From an uncultured Acidimicrobiales bacterium (lineage in GTDB: Bacteria; Actinomycetota; Acidimicrobiia; Acidimicrobiales; SZUA-35): a DNA stretch of 64,000 nt. Where the stretch lies: positions 3,227-67,226 of the forward strand of contig CAVZHQ010000001.1 in NCBI GenBank assembly GCA_963775125.1. The letters are read 5' to 3'. A program made the position numbers and the translations under genes. The notes under the pieces were generated by a model that saw only the letters and a program-made list of their open reading frames with translations, was not told where the DNA came from and made no database searches. Below, one piece after another: positions 1 to 52,532 of this stretch. How positions within the stretch are numbered: position 1 is the first letter of the stretch; every line of letters starts with the position of its first letter.

Positions 1-71
1 ACGGAAAGCGGCCGAAGCCGAAGCCCGCGGCGCCCCAGCGCACCGGGGACGCCAAGACACCTCGGGCATAG
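1..71 (+). CDS. 3' end of upstream gene (Lys/Pro-rich tail, product unknown)
   Basis: Frame from position 3 reads GKRPKPKPAAPQRTGDAKTPRA to TAG at 69-71, 8 bp before the next start. Confidence 0.4.
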   Translation, partial: GKRPKPKPAAPQRTGDAKTPRA

Positions 72-79
72 TACCCGTC

Positions 80-1812
80 GTGACTGCTCGATCCGCCCCC
101 CGTCTGCCCCACAAGTCGGCCGCCGAGATTTCGGCTGAGTTGCGCAACAGCTTCGTCGAGTCCCTCTATCGCCTGACCGGGGCCCAAGCCGGCCCCGATC
201 CCGTCTTGGCCGCGATGTTCGAATCGCTCGCCGTCCAGTTCGACCGGGTCTATCAGGAAGCCGACCAGGTCTTTTTCGGCGCCGCGCTCGACGACCTCAT
301 TCGAGGGCTGGGGATGCCGGCTCGATTGGCCCGACCGGCTCAAGCCGTCGTCCAGTTCAGCCAGCTGAGCGCCCGGGAAACGATTTCACCGGAAGTCGAA
401 CTGATCGGATACCAAGCGAGTGGCGAGCCGGCGGCCTTCGCTCCGGATGCCACCATCGATATTGCGCCGGTCGAGATCGTGTTTGCCGGGGTTGCCGAAG
501 GCGGCCGACTGACAACGTTAGGCGGGGCCCGTTTGCCCTGGGTCAATCAGCCGCTCCTGCCCGGCCTGTCGAGCCCGGTGCCGCTCTCGGCCGTCGCCCC
601 GACCCTGTTTCTCGCGTTCGAGGCGGACGCCGGCCACTTGAGCCGCCTTGGGCTGTTCGTCGAAACCGCAAGCCCGGCCTCGACCCTGCCCGCGACCCTC
701 GCCGAGGAGTCCGTGGCTGTTGCTCGACGGCGGCGGGTCGGATGACCGAACGGGGCGTTCTCCGGGCCGCCCGGACCCGTGGCGGGATGCGGCAACTGGC
801 CTTCCTGGCGATCTCCGGCCCCGAATCGAGACCGCAGGCGCCGCCGGCGTCGTGCCGCTGGTCGCCGGCGTGGTCGGTGACGCCGTCTGGCTCCTCCCAG
901 GAAACCCCGGCCGAACGCCGGTGGCGCTCGTCGGATTCCGCCCGCCATTGCCGAGGCGGTGCCGCGCCTGATGCCGGTCGGTCACGAGCAGGCCCTCGAC
1001 CGTCCCTTGGTCTGGCTTCAAATCCCGCTTGCGGCCGGAACTCAGCGCCAAGGCGAGTCAGATTTCTCGGTTTGCCGTCAATTGCGTGACGGGCGTCGAA
1101 CATCGAAATCTGGAGCGAGCAGATCGATTTCCCGTGGCTCGGGAACGTCGTGAGCCATCGCCCGTCCACGGCAACGGACCGGCATGTCCTCGGAGTCCAG
1201 AGCGTCGTCGGCGAGACCGGCGAGCCATATGCCGAGGTCTCCGATCTCGAAACCGCCCCGGGCGTGGGGTCGGTTCCGGTATCTCGGCGCCGGCCGGTTC
1301 GAGTTCGCGCCGGCCCGTCAGGCGAGCGGCCGCTTCGATCTCTACGCCATGCTTCGGATCCTCTATTGCGACGGCGACAGTGCCAATGGAATCGCCGCGG
1401 GGAAGATCGAACAGATTCGGAGCGAGTTGCCGCAGAACCCGTTGGCCCGGGTCACCAGTTTGACGCCCAGCAAAGGCGGGTCTAATCCGCCCGAGTATCC
1501 GGAAGCCAGGCTCCGGTTTGCGGAGCAGCTTCGGACCCGCGAACGGGTCGTGACGGCGGCCGATATCGAGATCGCCGTCCGGGCCACCGAACCTCGGGTA
1601 ACCGACGTCCAGGTCGCGGAGTATTTCGGAAATCACCACGGCCGGTTTTGAGCATGGTGACCATGGTCACCGCGACCGTGGCCCCCGAAGATTTCGCCGA
1701 CCCCGAGGCCGAGTTCGAACGGCTCCGAACCGAGCTTGAAGCCTACCTGTCCGAGCGATGTATGATCGGCCAGCGGATCCAAGTGACCATGGATCGCCGG
1801 AGCCGGCGATGA
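80..1812 (+). CDS. tssF: TssF / baseplate-J-like baseplate wedge protein (multiple frameshifts)
   Basis: N-terminal DPVLAAMFESLA...LDDLIRGLGMPARLARPAQAVVQF; C-terminal GG...E...ARLRFAEQLRTRERVVTAADIE motif (ORF 1184-1651); last frame ends TGA 1810-1812, overlapping next ATG. Confidence 0.72.
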
Positions 1813-2724
1813 ACGCGGCCATGCCGAATTTCGTCGCCCCGACCCGGGGAGTGAAGCAGTCGCTTGACTCGGCTGTTGAGTCGCTCAATCAGCTCGGCGT
1901 CGAAATGAACCGGATTGTCCTCCGAAGCGCGGGCCCCGGGTGGCGTCGCGGCGCGGTCATCGCTCAGGATCCCGCGCCAGGCACCACGCTCCGCCCCGAG
2001 TCGAGGGTCACCCTCACGGTAGCCGGCGCCGGCGCCATCGACACCGCGCCGTTCGCGATGCGCGACAGTGCCGACGGGGAGTTTCGGATCGATAAGTTGT
2101 TTGACTTGTTCGACAACCACTTTCTCCGACTGGGCCACCATATTCGGTCGGCCGGTGGGATGCTGACGCCTGACCGGCCTGGGGGACTATGAAGGTGCCG
2201 CCAGGTGGATCACCGAAATATTTGGCCTCTCGGCCAAACCGTGGCCCAAGGAACGGTGGTACGACGTCGCCCTGGTCGTCCTCGTCCCTTCACCGGATTG
2301 CCGGCCGGCCGGAGGGGCGGCCCTGGCTTCTGGGTGGTGTTCCGGCTTCCGGCGTCGCCGGTTCGGCTGGTGTCTGGGATTGCCCCGGTCCGACCCGAAC
2401 GCCGAACCAGGCTCGGCCGCACGAACGGACGGTTAGGCGTCGACGCCTTGATTGGTGACGGCGTGACCGTCCATACCGCCGTCGAAATCGAGATTGGACC
2501 GGTCGACCTGGAGACGTACTGGCGGTCGATTGCGGCCGCCTGAACGCGGTCAACGCGATGCGTTGTACCGCTTAGTGCTGCCGGCACACGTTCAGAACCG
2601 CGTGGTGGAGCGATGGATCGTTGGGAATCGCGAGGAAGGCGCCGTCCTCGGTGACCGGCAACGCCACGCGGCCCAGGTGTCAACAGTTATCTCGGGACCC
2701 CCGAGCCGAGGAGTGCCCGCGTAA
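1809..2724 (+). CDS. tssG: TssG-like baseplate protein with N-terminal PASTA-like domain (frameshifted)
   Basis: MPNF...GAVIAQDPAPGTTLRPESRVTLTVA (PASTA pattern), then LFDLFDNHFLRL and RLGRTNGRLGVDALIG...IEIGPVDLETY (TssG patterns); ATGA overlap with tssF, TAA 2722-2724. Confidence 0.72.
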
Positions 2725-4372
2725 ATGCAGGATGAACAGTCGTTCCGATCGGTCAACTGGACCACGGTGGATGCTCCTCACCCCGGAGCATTTCCTCCAG
2801 CAAGATCGTCACAATGAGGAGTTGGTCGTTTGGCTGCTTCGATACTGCGTTCCGGTGTCCGGTCTCGTCGGCGGCGGAGTCCGCCTGGACGCGGTCGAGC
2901 AAGGCCTGGCCAAACTCGACCCGAAAATCGACCTGGTCAACGATGGTGATCGGCTCAGAGTCTCGGTCCTCCGCGCGCGGGCCATTACACCGAGCGGCGA
3001 GTTGATTGACGTCGACGAGTCCCGGCCGATCGACGTCCAAGTGAACCGAAGCGATCTGGCCGGGATTAGCGACCTTCTGGTTTACCTGGTGCGCCGGCCT
3101 GAGAAGGAGCCCGATCCTGATTCCGTCGGTCGTGATCAAGCGAACCCGAATCAGGCGGCCTACAGCCGGACCCGCTACGAGGTTCGGCTGGGTATCTCCG
3201 CGGACCGTGGCTGGTCCTCCGTCGCGGTCGCGAGGCTTCGGCGCGCCTCTGAAACGCCGGGTTCGAAAAGGACGGTCAGTACATTCCGCCCTGCGCCTCG
3301 CTCCTGGCGCACAGCGCCCTCTATGACGTGGCCACCAGGATCCAGGCCGAAACAAGGTTACTGGTGGGTGAGTTCCAGCTGGTCCACGAGAAGGCCGGCC
3401 ACTTCGCCGAACGAGTGGCCAGCCGGGGTGTCGACATCCGCGCCGACCTCGATATCCGGAGCTTCGTTGAACGAAGCGGTCCTCGCTCTCGAAACCGCCG
3501 CCTACGAAACCGCCGACCTGACCGTGGCTCCGCAACGGTTCTTCCAGCAAATCCACCGGGCGAATCGGCTGATCGCCTTGGCACTTTCGTTGAGCCAGTC
3601 GAGCCGCCAATTCTTCAAGGATCTCGGCCAAGTCGACGCCTCCTACTCCGAACTGCTCGATTCCGAGCAGGGCGTGCTCCGTACCGCCAAGAGATCTCGA
3701 TCGCCGTGAAGAGCTCCGCCCGGTTGCGACCCGAGCCATCGAGACCCTCACCCGCCTCCGGCGTTTGGTTGCAGCCCTGGCAGGCAAGTACGTCGACTAC
3801 CGGTTGAACGAGTCGATCGAGTCGATTCGCTTCATGCTCGATCGGGATGGCGAACAATTCTCACTCAAGCCTGTGTCGTCGCCGTCGCACCCCCAACGCG
3901 AAGGCGACCTCCTCACGTTCGTCTTTACCCAGCTCGAACTCGCTGGGCGCCACGAGTACCGGGTCGTCCTCACCGGTGACCCGAGAGCCGCGGCCGGATG
4001 GGCGGTTGGGCAGGAACTCAGTGTCTCGATCCGGGTCAACGCCTCAGGAGGACCCCGGCCGCCGATGTCGAGTTCAGTCATGTGCGAGGTCGAGGGCCAA
4101 AGGAACTTTGCCGTCAACTTCGATACCCCGCAGGACGTCACCACGATTGCTGGGCTCACCGTCACCGTCCAACCGGGGCAGGGAATCCGCGGCGCCGTGC
4201 TGTTCCGCCGCCGCCTGGGAATGGCCAGCCCCGGCGCCGCGGGGGCGATGCCGATGGCGCCGGCACCAGTGGCGTCGCCACGCCCGTAGCCCCGCCGATT
4301 CAGGCCCCGCCCCCGCCGCCCCCGCCTCCAGCGGCCCCTAAAATCACGCTCAAACGCCCGGGTCAGGGCTGA
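2725..4372 (+). CDS. tssK: TssK-like baseplate protein with atypical C-terminal domain and Pro-rich tail (frameshifted)
   Basis: GAGGAG RBS, ATG directly after TAA; SVNW..GMLLTPEHFLQQDRHNE and RARAITPSGELIDVD match the TssK N-terminus; pieces in ORFs 2621-3709, 3328-3807, 3765-4289, 3998-4372. Confidence 0.65.
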
Positions 4373-4389
4373 TCTGAGTCGAGGAAACC

Positions 4390-7054
4390 ATGGATCTCAA
4401 TCGTCTTTCGATGGACCTGACCGCGGCGCCGAAAGAGTCGCGCCGGGTCGCTACCAAGGCCGGGCAGGGGGTACATCCAGGCCAAGCACTTGTTGATGGC
4501 GCTGCTTGATCCGAAGGGGGCGTTAGGCCGGACCGCCGGCAAGCTCGGCCTGGATGCCGCCGGGGGTTCTTCGCCGGGTCGAGGCAGTCCCCGATGGGGC
4601 CGATGCCGTCAAAGCGGAGCCAGGGCGCCAGCCCGTGGCCGGCCGAACCTTGCGCTCGATCTGCTGGACCGGGCCACCGCCGCTGCCGACCAGAAGGGCA
4701 GCCACACGGTCGGCCGCTCCGAGGTGGCGCTTGCCGCGGCCAGCTCCGATCAAGCGAATATCGGACCGGCGCTTCGGGACGCCGGTTGGACCGTGGACAA
4801 ACTCACTGCCGCCCTCCGGTCGCCTGAAGTGATGCAGCCGACCGAGGAAAAGGCAGCCGAAGCAGGCGGCAGCGTACTGGCAAAGTACACCCGGGACTTG
4901 ACCGAGGCCGCCCGGGGCGGCAAGATCATGCCGGTGGTCGGCCGCGATTCCGAAACCAGAAACGTGATCCAAACCCTGCTCCGAAAGACCAAGAAACAAT
5001 CCAGTTCTCGTCGGTGACCCTGGGACCGGCAAAACCGCTGTGGTCGAAGGCTTGGCTCTCAGGATCGCTGCTGGTGACGTCCCGGAATCGCTCAAGAAAT
5101 GCCGCCTCTTGGCGCTCGACCTCACCGGCCTGGTGGCTGGAGCCAAGTACCGGGGCGAATTCGAAGAGCGGATCAAGGCGATTGCCGACGAGGTCCGTGA
5201 ATTGGACGACGTCATTCTCTTCCTTGACGAAATCCATACCCTGGTCGGCGCGGGCGGCAGCGCCGGTGGGATGGACGTGGCCAATATTCTCAAGCCGGCC
5301 TTGGCTCGTGGCGAACTCCGGTGCGTCGGCGCCACTACCTTCGACGAATATCGTGAGTCGATCGAAAAAGACGGCGCCCTCGCCCGCCGGTTCGAAAAGA
5401 TCGTCTGCGATGAGCCTGATGACGAAATGACTCTGGCCATGTTACGGGGTGTCAAGGGCAAGTACGAGGCCCATCACGGCGTCGCCATTGTCGAGGAGGC
5501 GCTCCAGGCCACGGTCAAATTGGCCCGTCGCCACATTCGCGACCGGTTCTTCCCCGACAAAGCCTTCGACATTCTCGACGAAGCCGCCGCTCGGCTCCGG
5601 ATGCAACGCGAAGCGAAGCCCAATGTGATCGATGAGAAGGAACGGGCGCTCGTTCGGCTCAAGACGAAGCAAGAGGCCATCAAGGCAAGCGGCGAGGGCG
5701 ATGCGCCCGCGGTGGCGAAAGAGATCAAAGCGGCCGAAGCGGAGCTGGCGGTCGTTGAGAAGCGTTGGGCCGAAGAGAAGGCCGTCGGCGACGGCCTCCA
5801 GACGACCCGCAAGGCGACCTCGGAAAAACAGGCCGAGCTCGAAGCAGCCGAAGGGGCCGGCGACGTCGCCAAAGCGGCCGAGCTCCGCTACGGAGCCCTC
5901 AAGTTCCTCGGTGAGCAAGAGGCTGACCTGCTCAAACGCCAGGTCGTGATCCTCGAGCTCGGGGTCTTGGTGCCCCACGAAGTGCGGGCAACGGACGTCG
6001 CCGATGTGGTGGCCAGGCGGGCCGGCATTCCGATCTCGCGCATGATGGAGAGCGAGCGCGACCGGCTTTTGAAGCTCGAAGAGCGTTTGGCGAGTCGCGT
6101 CATCGGGCAGCCCGAAGCGGTCGACGCGCTGGCCGAAGCAGCCCGCCGGATGCGGGCGGACCTCAGGAAGAAGCGGAAGCCGGCGTCGTTCCTGTTCGTC
6201 GGACCGACCGGCGTTGGGAAGACCGAACTCGCCAAAGGCCTCGCCGAGGCGCTGTTCGACGACGAGAGCGCCCTAATTCGGATCGATATGGCGGAGTACA
6301 AGGACTCCGGATCGATTTCGGGGTTGATCGGTTCGAGGCCGGGCCTCGTCGGCTCCGAGCAAGGTGGGTTCCTGACGGAGCAGGTCCGCCGCTCTCCCTA
6401 CTCGGTGGTGCTGTTCGACGAAATCGAAAAGGCCCACGCCGAGGTGATGGACCTGATGTTGGGTCTCCTCGACGAGGGGCGCCTGACCGACGCCAAAGGC
6501 CGACTGTGCGACTTCACCAACACCATCGTCCTGTTGACCTCGAATCTCGGCGTCAAAGAGGCCAATGCCGTTGCCAAGACCAATGAGGAACGGCGCGACA
6601 TCATCATGAAGGTCGTCCAGTCAAGCCTGCGGCCCGAAATCTTCAACCGCCTCGGGGGCGTCATCCCGTTCAACGCCCTTGAGATGGACACCCTGGAAAT
6701 CATCGTCGGGATGCATCTCAAGAGCCTCGGCAGCCGGCTGAAAGAGGAGTACAAGGGCACCCTCGAGGTCGACCCGGACGCCGTCACACTGCTCGCAACC
6801 CTGGCCTATGACCCGATGTACGGGGCTCGGCCGGTCGAGCGGACCATTGACCGAAGCATTCTGAGCCGCTGTCCCGCCTGATCATCGGTGGCGACGTGAC
6901 CGCGGGGACGGTGGTTCGGGTCGTCAGGGATGGCGATGAGGTCGTTCTGTTAGCGGGGACCAAAGAGGAAGTCGACGCCGAGGCCCTGGTGGTCAAGGCC
7001 GATGCAGCCAAGCGCGCAGAAGCCGAAGCGAAAGGCGAGAAGGAGGCTCCATGA
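4390..7054 (+). CDS. ClpB/ClpV (TssH)-type AAA+ ATPase (frameshifted)
   Basis: GAGGA RBS; [33 protein letters not shown], coiled-coil [30 protein letters not shown]; ends TGA 7052-7054 overlapping next ATG. Confidence 0.9.
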
Positions 7055-8174
7055 AACGGTTGGCATTGGTGCTCGTCGCGGGGCTCTGCTGGGCCCCAGC
7101 CGCGGAAGCCCAGTTTCCGTTCTTCAAGAAAAAGAAGAAGGAGCAGCCGCCGGCCGAGGCCGCCGCCAAGGGTCCCGCCGAAACCGCGGCCCCAGGAGCC
7201 GCTCCGCCGGCACCGGCCACCGCCGATGGGCCTCAGCAGTCGGGTGCCGCGCCGGCGGTTGCGGCCCCATCCGCTCCAGCCCCCGCCCCGGGTCAGGCCA
7301 AGGGCCTGACGCCCGAGCAAGAGGAGGCCCTCCAGGCCGAGATCGACCAGGCGATCGGGGCCGATGCGGTCGTCGACACCTCGGTCGGAAAAATCACCGA
7401 GCGAATGAGCCGCTGGCAGCGGCTCCTGTCAAGCTCCCACTCCAGGACGAACGCCGCCAGGCGGCCCAGCAGGCCTTCGACCGGGCCAAGACCGACCTCG
7501 ACCTTGCCAAGGCCAAGAGCGCTGCGCAAGGCAATGCCGGCGAGGACTTGAAAAAAGGCCATTGCCGACAAGCTCCAGTCCGCCGCCGCCGCCGTCCAGT
7601 CAAAGGACTGGGGCAACGCCGAGCGCGATGCGACCTGGGTCATCGAGCGCGACCCGGAGAACAAACGAGCCGAACGAATTCTTCAGCAAGCCGCAAGCGG
7701 CCGGAAACTGAGCGATCTCCTGTGGATGCTCGGCATGCTTGCCGCGGTCCTCGTGGTCGTTGCCGTTCCCTTGGTCCTAGTGGGGAAATGGTACGCCAAG
7801 AAGCGGGAGGAGCGTCTTTCCAAGGAGCAAACCGCGGCAGCCAACCGCGCCGCGGTCCTTCAGATCGTCGATGGCTTGTCCCGTGGCAAGTTGATTACCC
7901 TCGACAAGGACAAAGCCACCTTCAAGATCGGCGCCGCGACCGGGCCAGGCGACACCGAAAAGAACGATCTGATCCTCAGCGATTCGGCCACGCTTGTCTC
8001 CCGCTACCACTGCAGTCTGATCCGGCGGGCCGGCGATTATTTCTTCGTCGATTCGAGTCTAACGGCACTGCGGTCAACGGCGATCTGCTCAAGCGAGGGG
8101 AGCACTATCCCCTCGAGGATGGCGACGAGATTACGGTGGCGGACGTGTCCCGGATCAAGTTTCTCCACGCCTGA
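7051..8174 (+). CDS. Signal peptide / Pro-Ala linker / TPR-like / TM / C-terminal FHA domain protein (frameshifted)
   Basis: [20 protein letters not shown] signal peptide; TM followed by KWYAKKREER; FHA motifs FKIG...NDLIL...VSRYHC...DSS-NGTAVNG...LEDGDEI. Confidence 0.75.
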
Positions 8175-8176
8175 CG

Positions 8177-8998
8177 GTGGTAGTCCCGGGCTATCAGCTG
8201 GTCCGCCGACTGTCGTTAGGCGGCGGACCCACTGAGGTGTGGAGCGCCCGCACTTCGATTGGCGGCGAGGCGGTCGCCCTCAAGATCCTCAGGCAGTGTG
8301 CCTCAGAAGACCAGCGACTCCGGTTTGCCGCCGAGCGGGCTCTGCTCGGCCGGCTGGGCGGCCGCCACGGCGTCATTCGGCAGCTCGGCACCGTCGACGC
8401 CCCCCCCGCGATCGTCCTGGAACTCATGCCGGGCGGGAACCTCCGCACCCGGATCGGGGAGGCCCCCGTGTCACAACCGGACGCGATTCGTCTTGGGATC
8501 GACACGGCTCGCACGCTTCAGTGGCTCCATGAGCGACAGGTCATTCATCGCGACGTGAAGTCGAGCAACGTACTCCTCGCTCTGGACGGGTCCTCCAGGT
8601 TGGCCGATTTCAGTGTGGCTGCTGAAGGCGATCCTCCGCGGAGCCTCCCGGATGGCTGGATTGAGGAAACGGTCGGGACGCTTGGCTACGCCGCGCCCGA
8701 GTTGCTCCGAGCGCCGAATACGGCAACGCCGATGATGGACGTCTACGGGCTCGGTGCGGTCCTCTATGAGATGCTGACCGGTCGGCTACCGGCCATGATG
8801 GAGGGAGACGAGGACGAGCTCCAACTCAGGGCCAGGGTTGCCGCTGGGGCGCAGGCCCCGCCCCTCCGGCCCGGGGTCGACTCCGCGCCCTGGCTGGCAG
8901 CGGTCGTCATGCGGGCTCTCGACCCCAATCCCGCCACTCGCTTCCAAGCGGCTCGTGACGTCGAAGCGGCCCTCCGAAACGGGTCTAGCGCGGTGTGA
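8177..8998 (+). CDS. Hanks-type Ser/Thr protein kinase, soluble kinase domain only
   Basis: VALK, HRDVKSSN, LADFS, GTLGYAAPE, DVYGLG, ALDPNPATRF. Confidence 0.92.
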   Translation: MVVPGYQLVRRLSLGGGPTEVWSARTSIGGEAVALKILRQCASEDQRLRFAAERALLGRLGGRHGVIRQLGTVDAPPAIVLELMPGGNLRTRIGEAPVSQPDAIRLGIDTARTLQWLHERQVIHRDVKSSNVLLALDGSSRLADFSVAAEGDPPRSLPDGWIEETVGTLGYAAPELLRAPNTATPMMDVYGLGAVLYEMLTGRLPAMMEGDEDELQLRARVAAGAQAPPLRPGVDSAPWLAAVVMRALDPNPATRFQAARDVEAALRNGSSAV

Positions 8999-10110
8999 CG
9001 GTGTATTTATCCCGGCGATCGCGGAACCGATCGATGTGGAGGTGCTTGCCGGTGCCGGCCCGATCCGGAACACCTCGCTTGATGGCGGCCTGAATCTGAG
9101 CCATCAGCACCGCATCGAGCGAAAAGTCCTTGACTCGAATCCCCCGGTCGCCAAAGGCCCCGATCAGAAACGTGACCTGTTCGGGGCGGAGGTCACGGGT
9201 CCGAACGTCGAGCGCGCTACTGGGACCGTAGAGGGACACATGCTCCGGATGGTCACGGCCGGTAACTTCGAACTCTCGTTGAAACTGTGCCTGGAAAGCC
9301 CGCTGAGCCTCCGCCACCGCTAGCGCGAACAGCTGGGGGGTCAAATTCGACCTGAGAGAGGCCCCGAGGTCCTTGAAGGAATTCTTGATCCTCGCCAGAC
9401 CCACCGGTCCGGTTCGTTTGTTGAACTGATAGAGATCGACCGCGGCGTTGTTGAAGGTGTTGATGGCGGGAATGAACCAGGCATTGTCGGCGATCGTGCT
9501 GGTCTTGAGCAGGACAAGCGCCTCGGTCAGCTGATTGGCCGCCTCGTCAGTGGCCCCAAAATCCAGCAGGGTAGCTGCCCGTTCGAAACGAGTCGTGGCC
9601 TCGACCATCAGGCTATCGAAAGTCTGCGCATCAAGGTCCGACAGAGTCGGAATCGAGTCGCCAGCGGTGGCCGCGGTCCGGATCCGCTGGATGGTCGTGA
9701 CCGCCAGATAGCCGAGCCCGACGAGGACAACCGAACCCGCAATCAGCAGCCCCCACGGGGTGGTCGACCGAGCGCCACGGACCCGGCGCCTCCGCTGCCA
9801 CCACCGGCGCTTCCGTCCCGGCTCGAGCGCGGTCTCGTATTCCGGCTCAGGCACATCCACGATCGGCTTGACCCGCGGCTCACCGGTGACAAACTCAAAT
9901 CGGGCCGAGGGACCGAGCTCGACCACGGCCCCATCGAGCAACTTGGTCGCCGTCGTGACCGCCGCCCCGTTCAGCCGAACCGTCGTCCCTGGACCGAACG
10001 GTGACAGGTAGTACCCATCCTGCCGCTCGCTGATCGACGCATGCCGCTCGGCCACGCCCGGCAGGTAGACCCGGAGACCGCTTGAAGACGACGACCCAAT
10101 CCAAAACCAG
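8985..10110 (-). CDS. FHA / TM / helical / putative LAS (M15-like) metallopeptidase protein, 5'-truncated at junction
   Basis: FWIG...GVAERHASI...VRLNG...LLDGAVVELG (FHA); Arg-rich patch then TM; C-terminal H..H...ALDV and GTGKHLHID; no native start found before the junction. Confidence 0.6.
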
Positions 10111-12363: not shown

Positions 12364-12449
12364 GCGTTCCCAATCGGCTGTAGACCCTTTTGGCGGTACA
12401 CAGTGCGGAACACGATCCGTCTGTTCAGACCGAAGGGGAGCCACCCGCT

Positions 12450-13826
12450 GTGGGTTACTACGACAACGACACGTACACCAAGGTCATCCTGCCCGAGAGC
12501 GAGATGCCCACGCAGTGGTACAACATTGTTCCCGATCTGCCGGCACCGCCGCCACCGCCACTACATCCCGGCACGCGTGAACCCATCGGGCCGGCCGATC
12601 TCGCCCCGTTGTTCCCGATGGCCATCATCGAGCAGGAGGTCTCGACCGAGAGCTACATCGACATCCCCGGCGAGGTGCTCGACGTCTACCGCTTGTGGCG
12701 GCCGAGCCCGCTGTTCCGTGCACGACGGCTCGAGAAGCTGCTGGGAACACCGGCCAAGATCTTCTACAAGTACGAGGGAGTCAGCCCGGCCGGCTCGCAC
12801 AAGCCGAACACCTCGGTGCCCCAGGCGTACTACAACCACAAAGAGGGCGTGACCAAGCTCACCACCGAGACCGGTGCCGGGCAGTGGGGCTCGTCCCTCG
12901 CATTTGCCACCGCTCAGTACGGGATGGAGTGCGAGGTGTGGCAGGTGGCGGCCTCGTACCGGCAAAAGCCGTATCGCAAGGCGATGATGGAGATCTGGGG
13001 AGCGACGGTCCATTCGAGCCCGTCGGAGGTCACCGAGTACGGACGGTCGTTGCTGGCCGAGAACCCCGATCATCCCGGTTCCCTCGGTATCGCCATCTCC
13101 GAAGCAGTGATGATGGCCGTCGAGGATCCCAACACCCGCTACGCGCTGGGCAGCGTGCTCAACCACGTGTTGATGCACCAGACCATCATCGGCGAGGAGG
13201 CGCTGTTACAGCTGGCCATGGTCGGGGAGACGCCCGACCTTCTGATTGGTTGCACCGGTGGCGGCTCCAACTTCGGAGGCCTGGCCTTCCCATTCCTGCG
13301 GGAGAAGTTGGCCGGTCGCATGAACCCGACCATCCGCTGCGTCGAGCCGGCGGCATGCCCGACGCTCACCAAAGGCGAGTACCGCTACGACTTCGGCGAC
13401 ACCGCGGGGCTCACACCCCTGGTGAAGATGCACACGCTCGGTCACAACTTCATCCCCGACCCCATCCACGCCGGCGGGTTGCGTTACCACGGCATGGCCC
13501 CGCTGGTGTCGCACATCTATGAGTTGGGCCTGGTCGAAGCCATCGCGCTTCCCCAGAGCGAGTGTTTCGAGGCCGCCGTGCAGTTCGCCCGTTGCGAAGG
13601 GATCGTGCCCGCACCCGAGCCGACGCACGCGTTGGCCGCCGCCATCCGCGAGGCGCTCGCGTGCAAGGAGTCGGGTGAGGAGAAGGTCATCCTCACCGCA
13701 CTCTGCGGCCACGGTCACCTCGACATGGCCGCGTACCAGGCCCACTTCGCCGGCGAGCTGGTCGACTACGACTTGTCGGACGCCGAGATCGCCGAGGCCA
13801 TGAAGTCGGTTCCCGTCCTGGACTGA
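12450..13826 (+). CDS. trpB2: TrpB2-type tryptophan synthase beta-like PLP enzyme
   Basis: [32 protein letters not shown]; GTG start after AAGGGGAG. Confidence 0.95.
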
Positions 13827-13858: not shown

Positions 13859-14533
13859 ATGACCGGCTCGAACCCTGCACAACCGACATCGGTGGCACCG
13901 TCACCAGCAGATCAGTGGGAAGCCCGGTACGGCGGGGCCGACGGTTACTACTACGGAACGGAACCCAACGACTTCCTGAGGTCCATCGTCAGCGATCCTG
14001 TCGTCGACGGGGCTTCGGGGCGGTCGGGCCCACCAACCGCGCTGTGCCTGGCTGACGGGGAAGGGCGCAACGGCGTCTACCTGGCCCAGCTCGGCTACGC
14101 GGTCACGTCGGTCGACCTCACCCAGGCAGGCATGGACAAGGCGGCCCGGCTGGCGGCCGATCGGGGTGTTTCCCTGACGACCGTCGTCGCCGACCTGGCC
14201 GAGTTCGATCTCGGTGAAGGACAGTGGGACCTGATCGTGTCGATCTTCGCCCACACGCCGCCGCCGATCCGTGCCCGGGTGCACGCGGCGCTGGAGCGAG
14301 CGCTCCGGCCCGGAGGGCGGTTCGTGCTCGAGGCCTACACCCCCGATCAGATCGGCCGCGGTACCGGCGGCCCGCCGGTACCGGAGTTCACGATGACCAT
14401 CGATCGGCTGCGCACCGAGGTCGTCGGACTGGACATCGAGTTCGAGCTCGAGATCGTCCGCTCGGTGATCGAAGGCCCAGGTCACACCGGCGACGGCGCC
14501 GTCGTCCAGTTCATCGCCCGCAAACCGGGCTGA
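13859..14533 (+). CDS. Class I SAM-dependent methyltransferase
   Basis: YYYGTEPNDFL, LCLADGEGRNGVYLA. Confidence 0.9.
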   Translation: MTGSNPAQPTSVAPSPADQWEARYGGADGYYYGTEPNDFLRSIVSDPVVDGASGRSGPPTALCLADGEGRNGVYLAQLGYAVTSVDLTQAGMDKAARLAADRGVSLTTVVADLAEFDLGEGQWDLIVSIFAHTPPPIRARVHAALERALRPGGRFVLEAYTPDQIGRGTGGPPVPEFTMTIDRLRTEVVGLDIEFELEIVRSVIEGPGHTGDGAVVQFIARKPG

Positions 14534-14566
14534 GGCCCCATCGTTTGTCCCTCGGTGCCTGGCCGC

Positions 14567-15877
14567 TCAGGTTGGCGCGAATCTGGCCATGTCCGCTCCG
14601 ATCGCCTCGGCGGCGGGTTCGGACACCCCGGCCTCGGCCGCGAAGTCGGTCCAACGCGAGACGGTGCCGGTGACCTCGGCGATGATGGCCTTGTAGGCCG
14701 GGACGCCGAAGCGATCTCCGATTGCCTCGAGGTCCGCTCGGGTGATGTTCTCGGCCTTCGCGTTGATCGTCATCTGATGGCGTGCGACCCATTCGCTGCT
14801 GATCTTGTAGGAGTGGGTCAGGTCGTAGGCGGGAGCCAATGACCATCGACCGTCGGGGCTGCACAGGAACGCGGTGTTCTTGGTGTGGTCGTCGCGGTTG
14901 ACAGCGGCGACGTTGAAAACACATCGGCGGAAGATCTCGGCGGCGGCTTGGCGGCCGAGCGACAGCCGGTCGAGGACGAGCAGAAGGAGCTGTTCGTAGC
15001 TGTAGGCGCCAGGGAGCTTGTAGCTGGCGTGATCGAGGCCGCAAAGGCTGAGCAGATGGAGGCGTTCGTCGCCGGCGGGGCGGTCGAAGCGCCTCGTGAT
15101 GAAGTGGGCTCGGTTCCCCTCCGGGATAAGGCGGGATTCAGCCATCTCGATGCCGGCTTCGGTCGCCATCAGGTAGTAGGCGTACTCGATGCGTCCGTAG
15201 TCGGTGCCCTCGGTGATGACGGCGCCCCGGTCTCGGCCGACGGACGCGCCGTCGAGCTTGACCAGCCAGTGGGTGAACCCTTCCGGCGCATCGAACTGCC
15301 CGGACCGGATCTGGTTGGTGTCGGGGTTGTAGGCCACCAGGGCTTTGGCCCGGGCGCCGCCGGCGGATGCGCCGACCTGGATGAGTTGCTGCAGCGCTTC
15401 GTCGGCGGGAGCATCCGGCCCGAAATCGCCGGTGAGCACCTGGCGGGCCGAGGTCACCAGATCGGCCAGTGCGAGCGCAGTCGGCTCGGCCCCGATCGAC
15501 GTTACGGGCGGGTGGAAGGTGAGCGCGCCGAGTCCGCGCTCTCCGGTGTAGGCGAGGCGATCCAGCGCCGTGATGTCGGAGACGTCGATGCCCTGTCGCG
15601 CCATCCAGGCGTCGACGAGGGCGTTGCCGAAGTCGTCGGGCAAGGCGTCGGCGAGTAGCGGCGGTAGGCGCTTCCAGGTCGGCTCGTCGAGGCCCCGGAA
15701 GGTGAAGACGCCGGACGCGTTTGGCATCCGCAGGGGCGCAAGCTCGATCTGACCCGTCGCCCACTCGGGCGCGTACTCGAAGGCGTAGGCCCCGGCCGTG
15801 GGATCGGCGGCCACCGCCCCCACGGTTCGTCCCCACGCCCGCACTTCGACGACGTCGATGGGTTCGTAGACGCTCAT
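14567..15877 (-). CDS. hipA: HipA-family kinase toxin
   Basis: N-terminal couple domain FEYAPEW...DALPDDFG; SAGGARAKA, RRFDR, NRDDHTKN, LAPAYDL. Confidence 0.93.
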   Translation of the reverse strand: MSVYEPIDVVEVRAWGRTVGAVAADPTAGAYAFEYAPEWATGQIELAPLRMPNASGVFTFRGLDEPTWKRLPPLLADALPDDFGNALVDAWMARQGIDVSDITALDRLAYTGERGLGALTFHPPVTSIGAEPTALALADLVTSARQVLTGDFGPDAPADEALQQLIQVGASAGGARAKALVAYNPDTNQIRSGQFDAPEGFTHWLVKLDGASVGRDRGAVITEGTDYGRIEYAYYLMATEAGIEMAESRLIPEGNRAHFITRRFDRPAGDERLHLLSLCGLDHASYKLPGAYSYEQLLLLVLDRLSLGRQAAAEIFRRCVFNVAAVNRDDHTKNTAFLCSPDGRWSLAPAYDLTHSYKISSEWVARHQMTINAKAENITRADLEAIGDRFGVPAYKAIIAEVTGTVSRWTDFAAEAGVSEPAAEAIGADMARFAPT

Positions 15878-16330: not shown

Positions 16331-17194
16331 TCAGTCGACGAGCTGTTCCACGAGGGCCCAGTCGGGCTGGAGGCCGCTGACCGGGTTGAGGGGAACCACC
16401 ACGATGCGGTCGGCGCCAGCGTCGGCTTGGGCAGCGAGCCGACGCTTGATGTCGTCGATCGAGCCCCAGGCCACGATGGCGTCGACCAGCCGGTCGCTGC
16501 CCCCGTTGGTGAAGTCGTCGTCGTTGAAGCCGAGGGTTCGCCAAGCCCGGTGGTAATAGTCGAGTCCCATGTACATCCCGAGCGCCTTGCGACAGAGTTC
16601 TCGGGCGTTGTCCGGTTCGGGGCACAGCAGGCACATGGTCATCGGCGTCAGCGCCACCGAGGCGGGCAGAGCGGCCCGGGTTCGGGCGGTGTGCTCGACG
16701 TTCATGACGTAAGTGAACACGCCGTCGGCGTTGGCTGCGGCGACGTCGAGCATCTTCGGTCCGTGGGCTGCGACCTGGATGGGGTAGGAGATCGTACTGT
16801 CTCGGGGAAGGGTGAGCTTGGCGGCGCGGACGGCCTGCACGTACGACTCGAGCCGAGGTGCCGGTGCCGTCCACGTGTGGCCCCGTAGTTCGTTGAGGCC
16901 CCGGTTCGAGACGCCGAGACCCAGTTCGAAGCGGTTGCCGCTGAGTTCGGCAAGGGTGGCCGATGCCGCGGCCGCCGCCGTGGCGTCGCGGACGTACACA
17001 TTGGCGATGGCGGTCCCGACCTTCAAGGTGGTGGTGGCGCCGAGCAGCGCGCCGGAAGCAGCGAAGGGCTCACGCCCGAACAGCTCCGCCAGCCAAACCG
17101 ATTCGATGCCGGCGGCCTCGACCCGGCGGGCGTAGTCGAGGAAGTCCGAGCCGACCATGCGGTCGGTGTTGAAAAGGATGCCGATGCGAGTCAT
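16331..17194 (-). CDS. LLM-class (probably F420-dependent) oxidoreductase
   Basis: ESVWLAE, VGTAIANVYVRD, RFELGLGVS, AAHGPKML. Confidence 0.9.
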   Translation of the reverse strand: MTRIGILFNTDRMVGSDFLDYARRVEAAGIESVWLAELFGREPFAASGALLGATTTLKVGTAIANVYVRDATAAAAASATLAELSGNRFELGLGVSNRGLNELRGHTWTAPAPRLESYVQAVRAAKLTLPRDSTISYPIQVAAHGPKMLDVAAANADGVFTYVMNVEHTARTRAALPASVALTPMTMCLLCPEPDNARELCRKALGMYMGLDYYHRAWRTLGFNDDDFTNGGSDRLVDAIVAWGSIDDIKRRLAAQADAGADRIVVVPLNPVSGLQPDWALVEQLVD

Positions 17195-18411
17195 TGGGTG
17201 AGCGTCCGTTCGTGGGTGCGGATGACGTGTTGGGAGTCGAGCAGGTCGATGGCGGTCTGGTCGTAGCCGAGGTCGGTGAGGATGGCGCGTGTGTCCTGGC
17301 CCAGCTCGGGTGCATCAGTGGGGAACGCCGCCGGCGTGGTCCCGAACCGCCATGCTGGGCGAGGAACCCGGACCGAGCCGATGTGCGGGGCGTCGACGGT
17401 GGGGACGGATTGGCGGGCAACGGCCTGTGGATGATCGGCGACTTCGTCTCGGCTGAACACTCGACCGGCGGGGACGTCGTGGGCGGCGAATGTCGCGAGC
17501 GCGTCGGCGGTGGATCGGCCCGCAATCTCGTCGGCCAGGAGGTCCTGGAACAGACCGAGGTCGCCCTCGACCAGGTTCGGTGCCCAGCGAGGGTCGCTTG
17601 CCCATTCTGGTCGGTCCACGGCAAGGCAAAGGGACTCGAGCGGGGACATGATGGGCATGAGGACGATGGCACCGTCGGTGGTCGGGTACACCCGGTAGTA
17701 GTCGCCGGGGTACATGGCCGCATCGTCGGGCTCGCCCACGATCGTGTGCTGCATCATGCCGTCGGGCCAGAAGTACGCCAGGTTGGCTTCGTGCATGCTG
17801 ACTTGCACGTGTTGACCGCGTCGAAGGGGATCGCGTTCGCGGGCGAACAGCGCAGCGAGGATGGCTTCGACCGTTGCGTGCGACGTGGTCTTGTCGGCGG
17901 GGAAGTGACGAGCGAGGTCGTGGCGACCGGTGACAGGATCCCGCTGGAGGTCGACCATGCCACTCACCGCCTGGATGACGTAGTCGTAGACCGGTTCACC
18001 CGCGGCCGGACCGTCCGCCCCGAAGCCGCTGATGCTGGCGTAGACGAGCGACGGATTCAGGGCGAGGCACTCGTCAGGGTCGAGGCCGATGCCTGCTGCC
18101 TTTCCCGGGCGCATGTTCTGGATCACCACGTCGGCGGTGGTCACCAGCTTCTGGAGTATCTGCCGGCCCTCGGGGTGGCGGCCGTTGATGGCCAGGGACC
18201 GCTTGCCCCGGTTGGTGTTGTAGTAGTACGCGGTCATGCCGCCCCGGCGGCTGCCGGTGCCTCGGGTGAAGTCGGGCGCCGCCGGGTTCTCGACCTTGAT
18301 GACCTCGGCTCCGAGTTCGGCCAGGAGCATCGCCGTCAGTGGGCCAGAGAGGACAGACGAGACATCGAGCACTCGAATACCGGCGAGTGGCGGCGGGGAA
18401 CCGGTGGTCAT
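17191..18411 (-). CDS. CaiB/BaiF family III CoA-transferase
   Basis: PLAGIRVLD, LGAEVIKVE, NRGKRS, ADVVIQNMRPG; real start taken at MTTGSPP. Confidence 0.93.
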   Translation of the reverse strand: MTTGSPPPLAGIRVLDVSSVLSGPLTAMLLAELGAEVIKVENPAAPDFTRGTGSRRGGMTAYYYNTNRGKRSLAINGRHPEGRQILQKLVTTADVVIQNMRPGKAAGIGLDPDECLALNPSLVYASISGFGADGPAAGEPVYDYVIQAVSGMVDLQRDPVTGRHDLARHFPADKTTSHATVEAILAALFARERDPLRRGQHVQVSMHEANLAYFWPDGMMQHTIVGEPDDAAMYPGDYYRVYPTTDGAIVLMPIMSPLESLCLAVDRPEWASDPRWAPNLVEGDLGLFQDLLADEIAGRSTADALATFAAHDVPAGRVFSRDEVADHPQAVARQSVPTVDAPHIGSVRVPRPAWRFGTTPAAFPTDAPELGQDTRAILTDLGYDQTAIDLLDSQHVIRTHERTLTQ

Positions 18412-50981: not shown

Positions 50982-52532
50982 TTGTCCATGCAGAGCAGTC
51001 GGCCCGAGCTCCGGCCAGACATGCGGTCCAGCAATGCGGCCAACACTACGCTTGGAGCAGGAGCGTTTCCACAGACACTGCGTGGCAGTGGCCAGGTCAC
51101 CGATCTCCTGGCCGTCTTTCGGGGAGACGCCCCTGTCGACGGTGTCGCCGGTGGTCCAGCCGAGTTGCTCTGGTGGGCTGGTGACGTCGAGCAGGCGGTC
51201 GCGGTCAGCGGCGGAGCGATCGGGCTGCTCGATGAGGTGATCCCGTTGTTCGGGGCGGACGGGGAGTCCGGGTGGATGCTCATGCGCCGTCGTCCGGTGC
51301 TTCCCCATGGCGGTGCCCTCGTCGTCGAGGACGACGAGATCAATCGTGAGTTCTACGGCGTCGTGCTCGCCCAAATCGGGCTCGACGTGCATCTGGCCGC
51401 CTCTGCGGCCGAAGCGTTGGAGATCGCCCGATCGCATCCATTGTCCCTCGCCATCGTCGATGTGCGGCTGCCCGACGCCAATGGATTCGAGCTGTGCCGC
51501 AGCCTGGTTGCAGAACGATCGATGCAGGACTGCTCGATCCTGATCATGAGCGCTGATCCGCTCTCGGCTGACTACGAGCGCATCGAGGCGGTGGGCGCGG
51601 TGGGCTTCGTTCTCAACCCGGTCCATCCCGCTGAATTGGCCCGTCGAGTCGCCCAGGTGCTCGCTCACTCGGCCGGAGCACCCATCAGCGGCCATCCGAC
51701 CAGGAAACCGGTGCGGTCGACACAGCCGGCCTCCCGACTCTCGTTCTTCGGCCGGCCGACCATCTCGGTCAGGGGAGTCAGCACCCCGCTCCGGCCAGGC
51801 CAGTCCACGGTCCTGTTGGCGGCGCTCGCAACCGCGTGTCCCGCGCCCGTGAGTTCGGAACGCCTCGGTCGATTCGGGTGGCCGACCGAAGCCGACGTCT
51901 CTCCGAACGCGGTCTACACCGCAGTCAGTCGCCTGCGTCACTTCCTCTCCGAGGCAGGCGCACCGGACTTGCTGCAGTCCGACGGGTCGGGGTACGCGCT
52001 CAACATCGAGCCGTTGAACATCGACCTGGTTCGCTTCGAAGCGGAGGCCCGCTCGCTTCTCACGGTCGCCGAAAGCGGGTTGGAGGACGCGCTCGAGAAC
52101 ATTCAACAGGTCCTCGGGCTCTGGACCGGCGAGCCGTTCGTCGGCACCAGGAACGAAATGCTCACCCGATGGGGGAATCGGTTGGCCGAGTCGCGCTCGC
52201 GTCTGCTCGAGATGCAGTGCGTGATGTTGGTGCTGGTGGGAAACGCCCGAGCCGCGGCTGAGGTCTGTCGCGACCTTCTGCTACAGGAACCGTGGCGAGA
52301 GTTCATGTGGGCCACGCTCATCGTCGCGCTGTACCGGTCGGGACGAAGCCGGGACGCGTTGACCGCCTTCGGTCATGCACGCAAGCGCCTGCAGGACGAG
52401 CTGGGTCTCGATCCGGGTCCGTTGCTCACCGACCTGGAGATGATGATCCTCATCCACGACCCAGCGCTACGCGACGACGACTGGCTGCGCCGAATGGCGC
52501 TCGGCAGCCCGTTCACCGCCGGTGAGCTCTAG
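50982..52532 (+). CDS. Receiver + winged-helix + BTAD (SARP/AfsR-type) transcription regulator
   Basis: LVVEDD, IVDVRLPDANG; VSRLRHFL...GYAL; EPWRE...ALYRSGR...ELGLDPG. Confidence 0.9.
   Translation: MSMQSSRPELRPDMRSSNAANTTLGAGAFPQTLRGSGQVTDLLAVFRGDAPVDGVAGGPAELLWWAGDVEQAVAVSGGAIGLLDEVIPLFGADGESGWMLMRRRPVLPHGGALVVEDDEINREFYGVVLAQIGLDVHLAASAAEALEIARSHPLSLAIVDVRLPDANGFELCRSLVAERSMQDCSILIMSADPLSADYERIEAVGAVGFVLNPVHPAELARRVAQVLAHSAGAPISGHPTRKPVRSTQPASRLSFFGRPTISVRGVSTPLRPGQSTVLLAALATACPAPVSSERLGRFGWPTEADVSPNAVYTAVSRLRHFLSEAGAPDLLQSDGSGYALNIEPLNIDLVRFEAEARSLLTVAESGLEDALENIQQVLGLWTGEPFVGTRNEMLTRWGNRLAESRSRLLEMQCVMLVLVGNARAAAEVCRDLLLQEPWREFMWATLIVALYRSGRSRDALTAFGHARKRLQDELGLDPGPLLTDLEMMILIHDPALRDDDWLRRMALGSPFTAGEL

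Follow-up and report, generated by a model that had tools for sequence, protein, structure and literature searches.

A gene for a type VI secretion system (T6SS) baseplate subunit, TssG, that begins with a PASTA domain lies near the left end of the DNA analysed here, a stretch of 64,000 nucleotides (hereafter the window) from an assembly assigned to an uncultured Acidimicrobiales bacterium (GCA_963775125.1, contig CAVZHQ010000001.1, here C1, positions 3,227 to 67,226). By sequence comparison, PASTA-TssG proteins of ~300 aa are a conserved variant in a few soil and sediment phyla (Gemmatimonadota, Zixibacteria). In these proteins the PASTA domain takes the place of the canonical N-terminal region, which corresponds to the first ~93 positions of the TssG profile. 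We lean towards a role for the domain in docking the baseplate to other proteins in the cytoplasm.

The PASTA domain and the start of TssG are encoded in one reading frame. The open reading frame (ORF) at 1758..2192 (+) is a single frame with a likely ATG start at 1809, reading MNAAMPNF..VTLTVAG, and this ATG shares bases with the TGA stop codon (1810-1812) of the tssF-like gene upstream. Pfam PASTA (PF03793) matches the ORF with an E value of 1.8e-9 and 37.9 bits against a cut-off of 23.2, which bears out the domain that a preliminary description made from the letters alone had placed at about 1821-2025. The segment LFDLFDNHFLRL at 2097-2132 is in the same frame as the domain, and no frameshift lies between PASTA and the start of TssG. 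The uninterrupted frame claimed in that description holds up to 2192 and fails for 1809-2724 as a whole, where the coding frame shifts at about 2185, 2282, 2320, 2329, 2541, 2676 and 2718. These seven single-base breaks were located by three-frame translation, by tblastn with an intact homologue and by base-level alignment to a homologous locus, L002. The TssG part of the window matches Pfam only piecewise, with 28.8 bits over positions 186-248 of 304 (above the cut-off) and 17.2 bits. When the L002 frame is projected onto the window, the tssG product is 86% identical in amino acids to the intact homologue P0001 and none of its 299 codons is a nonsense codon. No transmembrane (TM)-like or signal-like segment was seen in the intact homologue. 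The same holds for the N-terminal parts of those representatives, 58 among the 150 listed, that are 280-335 aa long, where inspection by eye of the rows displayed revealed no long hydrophobic run; both results agree with the earlier claim that a signal peptide and a TM segment are missing.

Database searches with the intact proteins place the family within TssG. In P0001, PASTA spans residues 12-68 and Pfam TssG spans residues 84-291, which correspond to positions 94-304 of the 304-position profile and score 44 bits (cut-off 24.6). The NCBIfam equivalog TIGR03347 matches residues 89-291 with 43.6 bits and an E value of 2e-11, below its cut-off of 143.3. Judged from these matches, PASTA-headed TssG is a divergent TssG, and its relatives keep the name TssG at NCBI. 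When the N-terminal 123 residues were used to look for longer relatives, 21 TssG-like proteins of 254-310 aa and one PASTA kinase were obtained. Both Pfam domains are precomputed in 15 of the 21 homologues, and two are named TssG (Gemmatimonadales, Longimicrobium). All 19 members of the alignment A1 match TssG and 18 match PASTA, while PASTA is matched by 22 of 37 members of the wider set A2. An exhaustive profile search found 435 representatives with E <= 0.001, 130 with E <= 1e-10 and 54 with E <= 1e-30, and, among the rows displayed, nearly all representatives of 280-335 aa begin with an MPDL/MPDF-like sequence. More remote members of full length carry the name TssG and come from candidate division Zixibacteria; ten distant members were scanned singly, and PASTA was matched with E <= 0.02 in eight of them and not in the other two. 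Of 301 Gemmatimonadota genomes sampled, the PASTA type occurs in seven and a canonical TssG matching the full profile in 27, with no genome having the two together. In the ESM Atlas, three TssG clusters carry PASTA in 20-31% of their members, with Acidobacteriota and Zixibacteria as the commonest phyla; Atlas taxa are the only source for a spread beyond Gemmatimonadota and Zixibacteria. Searches of phage and plasmid collections with P0001 by tblastn gave no match. Twenty genomic loci were recovered, 19 labelled Gemmatimonadota and one Bacillota. The Bacillota-labelled locus (L020) comes from a metagenome-assembled genome (MAG), and its cluster is collinear with that of the distant Gemmatimonadota clade, so that a binning or labelling error may be involved.

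Structure prediction clearly recovers the PASTA half of this architecture and, tentatively, the TssG half. The full-length model has a mean predicted local distance difference test (pLDDT) score of 69.5, with 75-85 in the PASTA part and values below 50 at residues 80-114; folded alone, the PASTA domain reaches 80.3. The modelled domain is small, with one helix and three main strands, and its top match is the StkP PASTA domain 5nod_A (Z 10.0, root-mean-square deviation (rmsd) 2.1, 65 residues aligned, for the predicted model). Only 26 of 48,161 solved chains score Z 2 or more. The first 15 among them are PASTA domains without exception, from Z 10.0 down to 6.6; the next scores 5.6 and the remainder <= 2.9. 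Foldseek agrees with the PASTA assignment, and no baseplate protein is among the matches of the PASTA part in this set of chains. The superpositions give an rmsd of 1.7-2.3 Å over 62-65 residues at 18-25% identity. The N-terminal 71 residues are thus predicted to adopt the fold that the preliminary description had proposed, and its assignment of the C-terminal part to TssG is upheld by Pfam and suggested by fold comparison. In a model with the mean pLDDT given above, residues 88-292 align with 124-343 of 6n38_G (Z 7.6, rmsd 7.0, 164 aligned), and 6giy_C is matched with Z 6.6. The LG-repeat feet are conserved in A1, as RLG..RLG..(V/I)G and LG..LG..LG, and are present in the window. TssG LG-repeat feet plug into the TssK N-terminal cavity according to excerpts of PMC8406304, and by analogy the feet described here are predicted TssK-holding elements.

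The canonical TssG N-terminal region does not resemble PASTA at the profile level. Comparison of the PASTA part with that region by hhalign gave a probability of 0.3%, and Pfam PASTA matched none of 12 canonical TssG N-termini. The idea that the canonical N-terminus is itself a diverged PASTA domain finds no support at this level. In enteroaggregative Escherichia coli (EAEC) TssG, residues 1-121 are unmodelled in 6N38, as stated in excerpts of PMC6300606.

The features of the cluster in the window, in window coordinates, are as follows.

80..1812, + strand: tssF-like (gpJ/gp6-like) baseplate gene with single-base errors; the 574-aa L002 protein aligns by tblastn to C1:3306-5035.
1809..2724, + strand: tssG with N-terminal PASTA, ~304 codons discounting seven single-base errors (Pfam, tblastn, L002 alignment).
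1821..2033, + strand: PASTA domain, residues 1-71 counted from MPNF; homologue models reach Z 9.7-10.0 to 5nod.
2034..2180, + strand: conserved linker and stem ('antenna') helix, including LFDLFDNHFLRL, with strong conservation in A1.
2409..2462, + strand: foot 1, three LG repeats (RLG..RLG..LIG); L197, G198, L204, G205 and G211 are (near-)invariant in A1.
2641..2696, + strand: foot 2, LG repeats (VLG..[A]LG..YLG), interrupted by the error at 2676 (A1 conservation, L002 alignment).
2727..4364, + strand: tssK with single-base errors; L002 TssK matches three pieces at 75-89% identity.
4390..7051, + strand: clpV (tssH), its N-terminal part broken by errors (Pfam, tblastn).
7051..8171, + strand: TagH-like FHA protein (family matches); in the homologue, the N-terminus is signal-like and a single TM-like segment is present.
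8177..8995, + strand: soluble Ser/Thr kinase of 273 aa, kinase domain only (Pkinase, E 1.2e-32).
8985..10106, - strand: second FHA protein with one TM-like segment, its 5' end cut by the junction; L002 homology ends at C1:13333.
10107: junction between a Gemmatimonadota-like T6SS fragment and an Actinomycetota chromosome, placed by two genomes of the same genus.

The seven breaks in tssG raise the question of whether the gene is decaying or merely misread. L002 and the window fragment are 78-82% identical in nucleotides over C1:1-13333, and between window positions 700 and 5000 the alignment contains 31 single-base gaps (those at 3862-3872 and 4714/4720 may be alignment noise). These gaps, together with the foreign origin of the fragment relative to the host lineage and its truncation within a gene at 10107, would suit a decaying pseudogene in a dead T6SS island acquired horizontally by an actinobacterium. 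Against such decay, the gaps are made up of 23 extra and eight missing bases with no larger deletions, and the projected L002 frame contains no nonsense codon in the 1,625 codons of the four broken genes. Their ratios of nonsynonymous to synonymous change (0.16-0.37) are not relaxed and resemble those of unbroken parts, 0.48 for vgrG and 0.20 for the C-terminal part of clpV. Short-read contigs of the same or near-identical sequence also lack the indels. Among the rows listed, they correct exactly one letter at 738, 805, 1042, 1091, 1618 and 1646 of the tssF-like gene, drop or add one letter at 2282, 2317, 2326/2328 and 2541 of tssG (four of its seven breaks), and correct one letter at 7551. 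One contig of 195 nt (1541-1737) has two such gaps and otherwise no differing letter. The short-read contigs come from three public runs of two studies, at a depth of 2-5, with 12 rows beyond those listed; the runs may include the sample of origin and so are not independent as to the organism, but they are data of a different type. In addition, windows rich in coding-phase switches crowd towards contig ends, with 15 of the 40 highest-ranked ones no more than 15 kb from an end, and another contig, C2, begins exactly at the homologue of the junction. We read the breaks as consensus errors because short-read contigs of near-identical DNA are free of them at the four of the seven sites that the listed rows cover. 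All seven are very probably errors of this kind and the copy in the window intact in its organism, and decay was rejected as very unlikely. A further objection, that the resemblance to PASTA arose by chance or that assembly created the fusion, has nothing but the poor quality of the stretch in its favour. It is refuted for practical purposes by the same architecture standing intact at 20 independent loci, by the length of 280-335 aa of 58 of the 150 listed 50%-identity representatives, and by the clear PASTA fold match in the search of solved chains.

The first 10.1 kb of the window (1-10106) belong to a Gemmatimonadota-like T6SS fragment of 13.3 kb in all. In two genomes of the same genus as the window genome, the homologue of C1:13333 continues directly into the homologue of C2:3, and L002 homology stops at the same base, within the 5' part of the FHA gene. 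The nitroreductase gene to the right of 10107 was found in five of five genomes of the same genus (71-87% identity) and in none of five T6SS-holding genomes. TssK was not found in any of 40 relatives of the window genome, and the full-length PASTA-TssG profile matched none of 400 other genomes of its phylum, 29 of which (including the unpublished G125) match the PASTA part only. Further to the right, a TrpB-like protein (12390-13823) is 97% identical to a protein of an Actinomycetota MAG, and its other named relatives are from Acidimicrobiia. The tetranucleotide use of C1:1-13000 is the fourth most unusual of 385 chunks, at a distance of 0.015 to L002 versus 0.025 to the genome mean. No listed short-read contig bridges 10107, which proves nothing. 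Collectively, these results suggest that a low-coverage Gemmatimonadota fragment was probably attached by misassembly to a contig of Actinomycetota origin, the real neighbour of which is the beginning of C2; less probably, the T6SS fragment is an island of a minor strain. Because the first 10 kb of the window are misjoined as well as of low quality, the T6SS should not be credited to the Actinomycetota genome. Many coding-phase switches also occur in C6:1-18000 and at the end of C2 (~1221000-1246728), and C6:0-13000 ranks second among the chunks for unusual tetranucleotide use. Low quality or misjoining may affect these contig ends as well.

The cluster to which PASTA-tssG belongs has the order tssB, tssC, a 145-aa ORF, a 123-aa ORF, vgrG, tssF-like, tssG, tssK, clpV, FHA, kinase, FHA. 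It thereby contains the sheath proteins TssB and TssC, VgrG, TssK, ClpV and the wedge of a T6SS, with a weak match for TssB (E 4.5e-4). In L002, a 382-aa protein with five TM-like segments and then a VWA protein with one lie upstream of tssB. The L002 tssF-like gene encodes a 574-aa gpJ-like protein that matches TIGR02243 ('putative baseplate assembly protein', E 9.1e-13), L002 TssK matches TIGR03353 (E 2.6e-19), the kinase has 267 aa, and both FHA proteins have one TM-like segment, the TagH-like one with a signal-like start. Over the part of the cluster that each locus covers, all 20 share this gene order, with the tssF-like gene preceding tssG and tssK following it. The kinase is present in nine of nine loci of the closer clade and in none of five of the distant clade. 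The 145-aa and 123-aa ORFs (L002:4732-5169 and 5231-5602, both +) stand at the places expected for hcp and tssE; neither has a Pfam or NCBIfam match, and both are homologous to C1:568-1406. A 188-aa minus-strand ORF between tssC and the 123-aa gene, also lacking a family match, was dismissed as an antisense shadow of the 145-aa plus-strand ORF.

The PASTA type also appears to differ from canonical systems in its membrane components. Pfam models for the IcmF-related protein (TssM) and DotU (TssL) each matched none of five PASTA-type genomes, whereas both matched all five Gemmatimonadota genomes with canonical TssG. In the three of these five that have both on one contig (G503, G608 and G641), TssM and TssL lie 13-17 kb from tssG. 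The five-TM protein, the VWA protein, the two FHA membrane proteins and the bare kinase (L002:36-2443, 14428-15552 and 16350-17564; window 7051-10106) may form an alternative anchor and a phospho-switch.

In the mechanism that we propose, the PASTA domain would be a cytoplasmic module for protein-protein contacts, sited where the TssF2-TssG stem has its N-terminal tip and taking over whatever the canonical N-terminal region binds. The stem helix would bundle with two TssF copies, the two LG-repeat feet of the C-terminal domain would hold TssK trimers, and the PASTA domain would fit the wedge to different partners, which could be TssE together with the first ring of the sheath, or else the alternative proteins of the membrane or of regulation. 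The role of the stem is described in excerpts of PMC6300606 and PMC8406304; according to the former, the N-terminal helical stem contacts TssC and, by analogy with T4, TssE, and TssG is reported to contact TssM. Partner fitting appears the most likely job because PASTA-type TssG accompanies the loss of detectable TssL and TssM and the presence of FHA-bearing membrane proteins. On balance, we consider it somewhat probable that the PASTA domain is a cytoplasmic docking module that adapts the wedge to lineage-specific partners. Several points weigh against this reading. No partner of the PASTA domain was identified. The linker at residues 80-114 has a pLDDT below 50, so the model does not fix the placement of the domain, and the replacement of the canonical N-terminal region rests on a comparison of profiles and not of folds. 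Pfam TssF matched none of the five PASTA-type genomes despite their tssF-like gene; because Pfam misses this gene, distant TssL and TssM could be overlooked too, and the genomes in the five-versus-five contrast are related to one another. A role linked to the kinase would not be general, because the kinase is missing from all five distant-clade loci. Finally, PASTA domains of other proteins bind fragments of the cell wall or beta-lactams, which makes a ligand role conceivable. A complex prediction with the PASTA domain, the tssF-like protein, TssG residues 81-299 and the 123-aa protein returned 'no answer' (score 0.01) and counts neither way.

Cell-wall sensing is less likely than partner fitting, although it draws on the usual biology of the domain. 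In Gram-positive kinases and in penicillin-binding proteins, PASTA is usually viewed as a domain that senses the cell wall from outside the cytoplasm, and the PASTA domains of PknB, StkP and PrkC, to which the domain described here is nearest in fold and sequence, are known as sensors of muropeptides or lipid II. As a cytoplasmic ligand sensor, it could bind a cell-wall-derived metabolite, such as recycled muropeptides or a nucleotide-linked precursor, and gate assembly or firing, so that the system would answer cell-wall damage; in the closer clade, the kinase of the cluster comprises the kinase domain only and lacks a sensor part. In contrast, no ligand site is readable from the sequence, the kinase is absent from five of five distant-clade loci, and Atlas clusters that pair PASTA with P2 gpI-type tail proteins, a lead only, suit a structural role better. 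We judge such a sensor unlikely. Slightly less likely again is a larger departure, in which an undescribed T6SS lineage (Gemmatimonadota, Zixibacteria, perhaps Acidobacteriota) exchanged TssJLM for bitopic FHA and VWA membrane proteins, with PASTA linking the baseplate to the new anchor or reading cell-wall metabolites. If this were true, firing would depend on the state of the cell wall, and the presence of the same module on P2 gpI-type tail proteins would make PASTA a repeatedly used part of contractile baseplates. The preliminary description had also offered contact with peptidoglycan once the particle engages the envelope. All that speaks for contact during firing is that PASTA usually goes with enzymes of the cell wall and with kinases; the protein has no signal peptide or TM segment, TssG is a wedge subunit that is not expelled, and the N-terminal stem faces TssE and the sheath in excerpts of PMC6300606. 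Because TssG sits in the cytoplasmic baseplate and PASTA lies just ahead of that stem, such contact is highly improbable.

A conserved cytoplasmic PASTA domain in the secretion-system baseplate of diderm bacteria would widen the uses of the fold. It also flags a T6SS lineage with no detectable TssL or TssM that carries its own membrane and phospho-signalling proteins, and it offers a concrete variant to structural biologists probing the poorly resolved N-terminal part of TssG.

Some other genes of the window and genome were noted in passing. In the Actinomycetota genome proper, another VgrG-like gene, at 27% identity, and one resembling gpJ, at 34% identity, lie at C7:85801-89071 and may be parts of a contractile injection system of their own. 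The window encodes a HipA-like kinase toxin at 14567-15874 (-) (HipA_C, E 1.5e-46; HipA N-terminal coupling domain, E 2e-20) and, at 50982-52529 (+) in the Actinomycetota part, a protein in which a response-regulator receiver domain is joined to a transcriptional activator domain of the BTAD type.

No published description of the PASTA-TssG architecture was found in the literature covered, which leaves supplementary T6SS subtype tables outside its scope; this fits the earlier remark that no characterised TssG of such architecture was known. The proteins themselves are already public, named TssG by NCBI and with both Pfam domains precomputed, and it is the architecture that is apparently undescribed. 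Searches for literature on a T6SS in Zixibacteria returned nothing, those on T6SS or TssK in Gemmatimonadota returned nothing on PASTA-TssG among the papers listed, and the only work found that joins PASTA with a T6SS baseplate concerns an unrelated PASTA ORF in Salmonella SPI-21. Of the papers that mention a T6SS in Gemmatimonadetes, one concerns subtype i4b on a plasmid (excerpts of PMC9113992) and another omits the phylum from its figure (PMC4793230).

Compared with known systems, the cluster resembles the Bacteroidota T6SS-iii, which operates without TssJLM (excerpts of PMC4793230), in its contractile core with ClpV, in undetected TssL and TssM and in lineage-specific membrane proteins; this is a likeness of gene content. 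Among tail proteins of the P2 gpI family (Tail_P2_I), three ESM Atlas clusters of ~295 aa (76, 153 and 54 members, mostly Myxococcota) have Tail_P2_I in 100% of their members and PASTA in 71-91%, a tentative lead at a query similarity score of 0.79. The protein gpI is the phage counterpart of TssG in excerpts of PMC6300606. With the PASTA domains of PknB/StkP/PrkC kinases and PBP2x-type penicillin-binding proteins, the domain shares a PF03793 match above the cut-off and a predicted fold that superposes; unlike them, it is a single N-terminal copy on a baseplate protein of the cytoplasm that lacks a signal peptide and a TM segment, and no kinase or transpeptidase is attached to it. Canonical TssG of EAEC (6N38 chain G, 6GIY chain C) shares with PASTA-TssG the position between tssF and tssK, profile positions 94-304, the stem helix and the two LG-repeat feet. 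PASTA-TssG differs from it in scoring below the NCBIfam equivalog cut-off, in being hosted by genomes with no detectable TssL or TssM (five genomes), and in carrying, in place of the first ~93 profile positions, a PASTA domain with no detectable profile similarity to the region it replaces.

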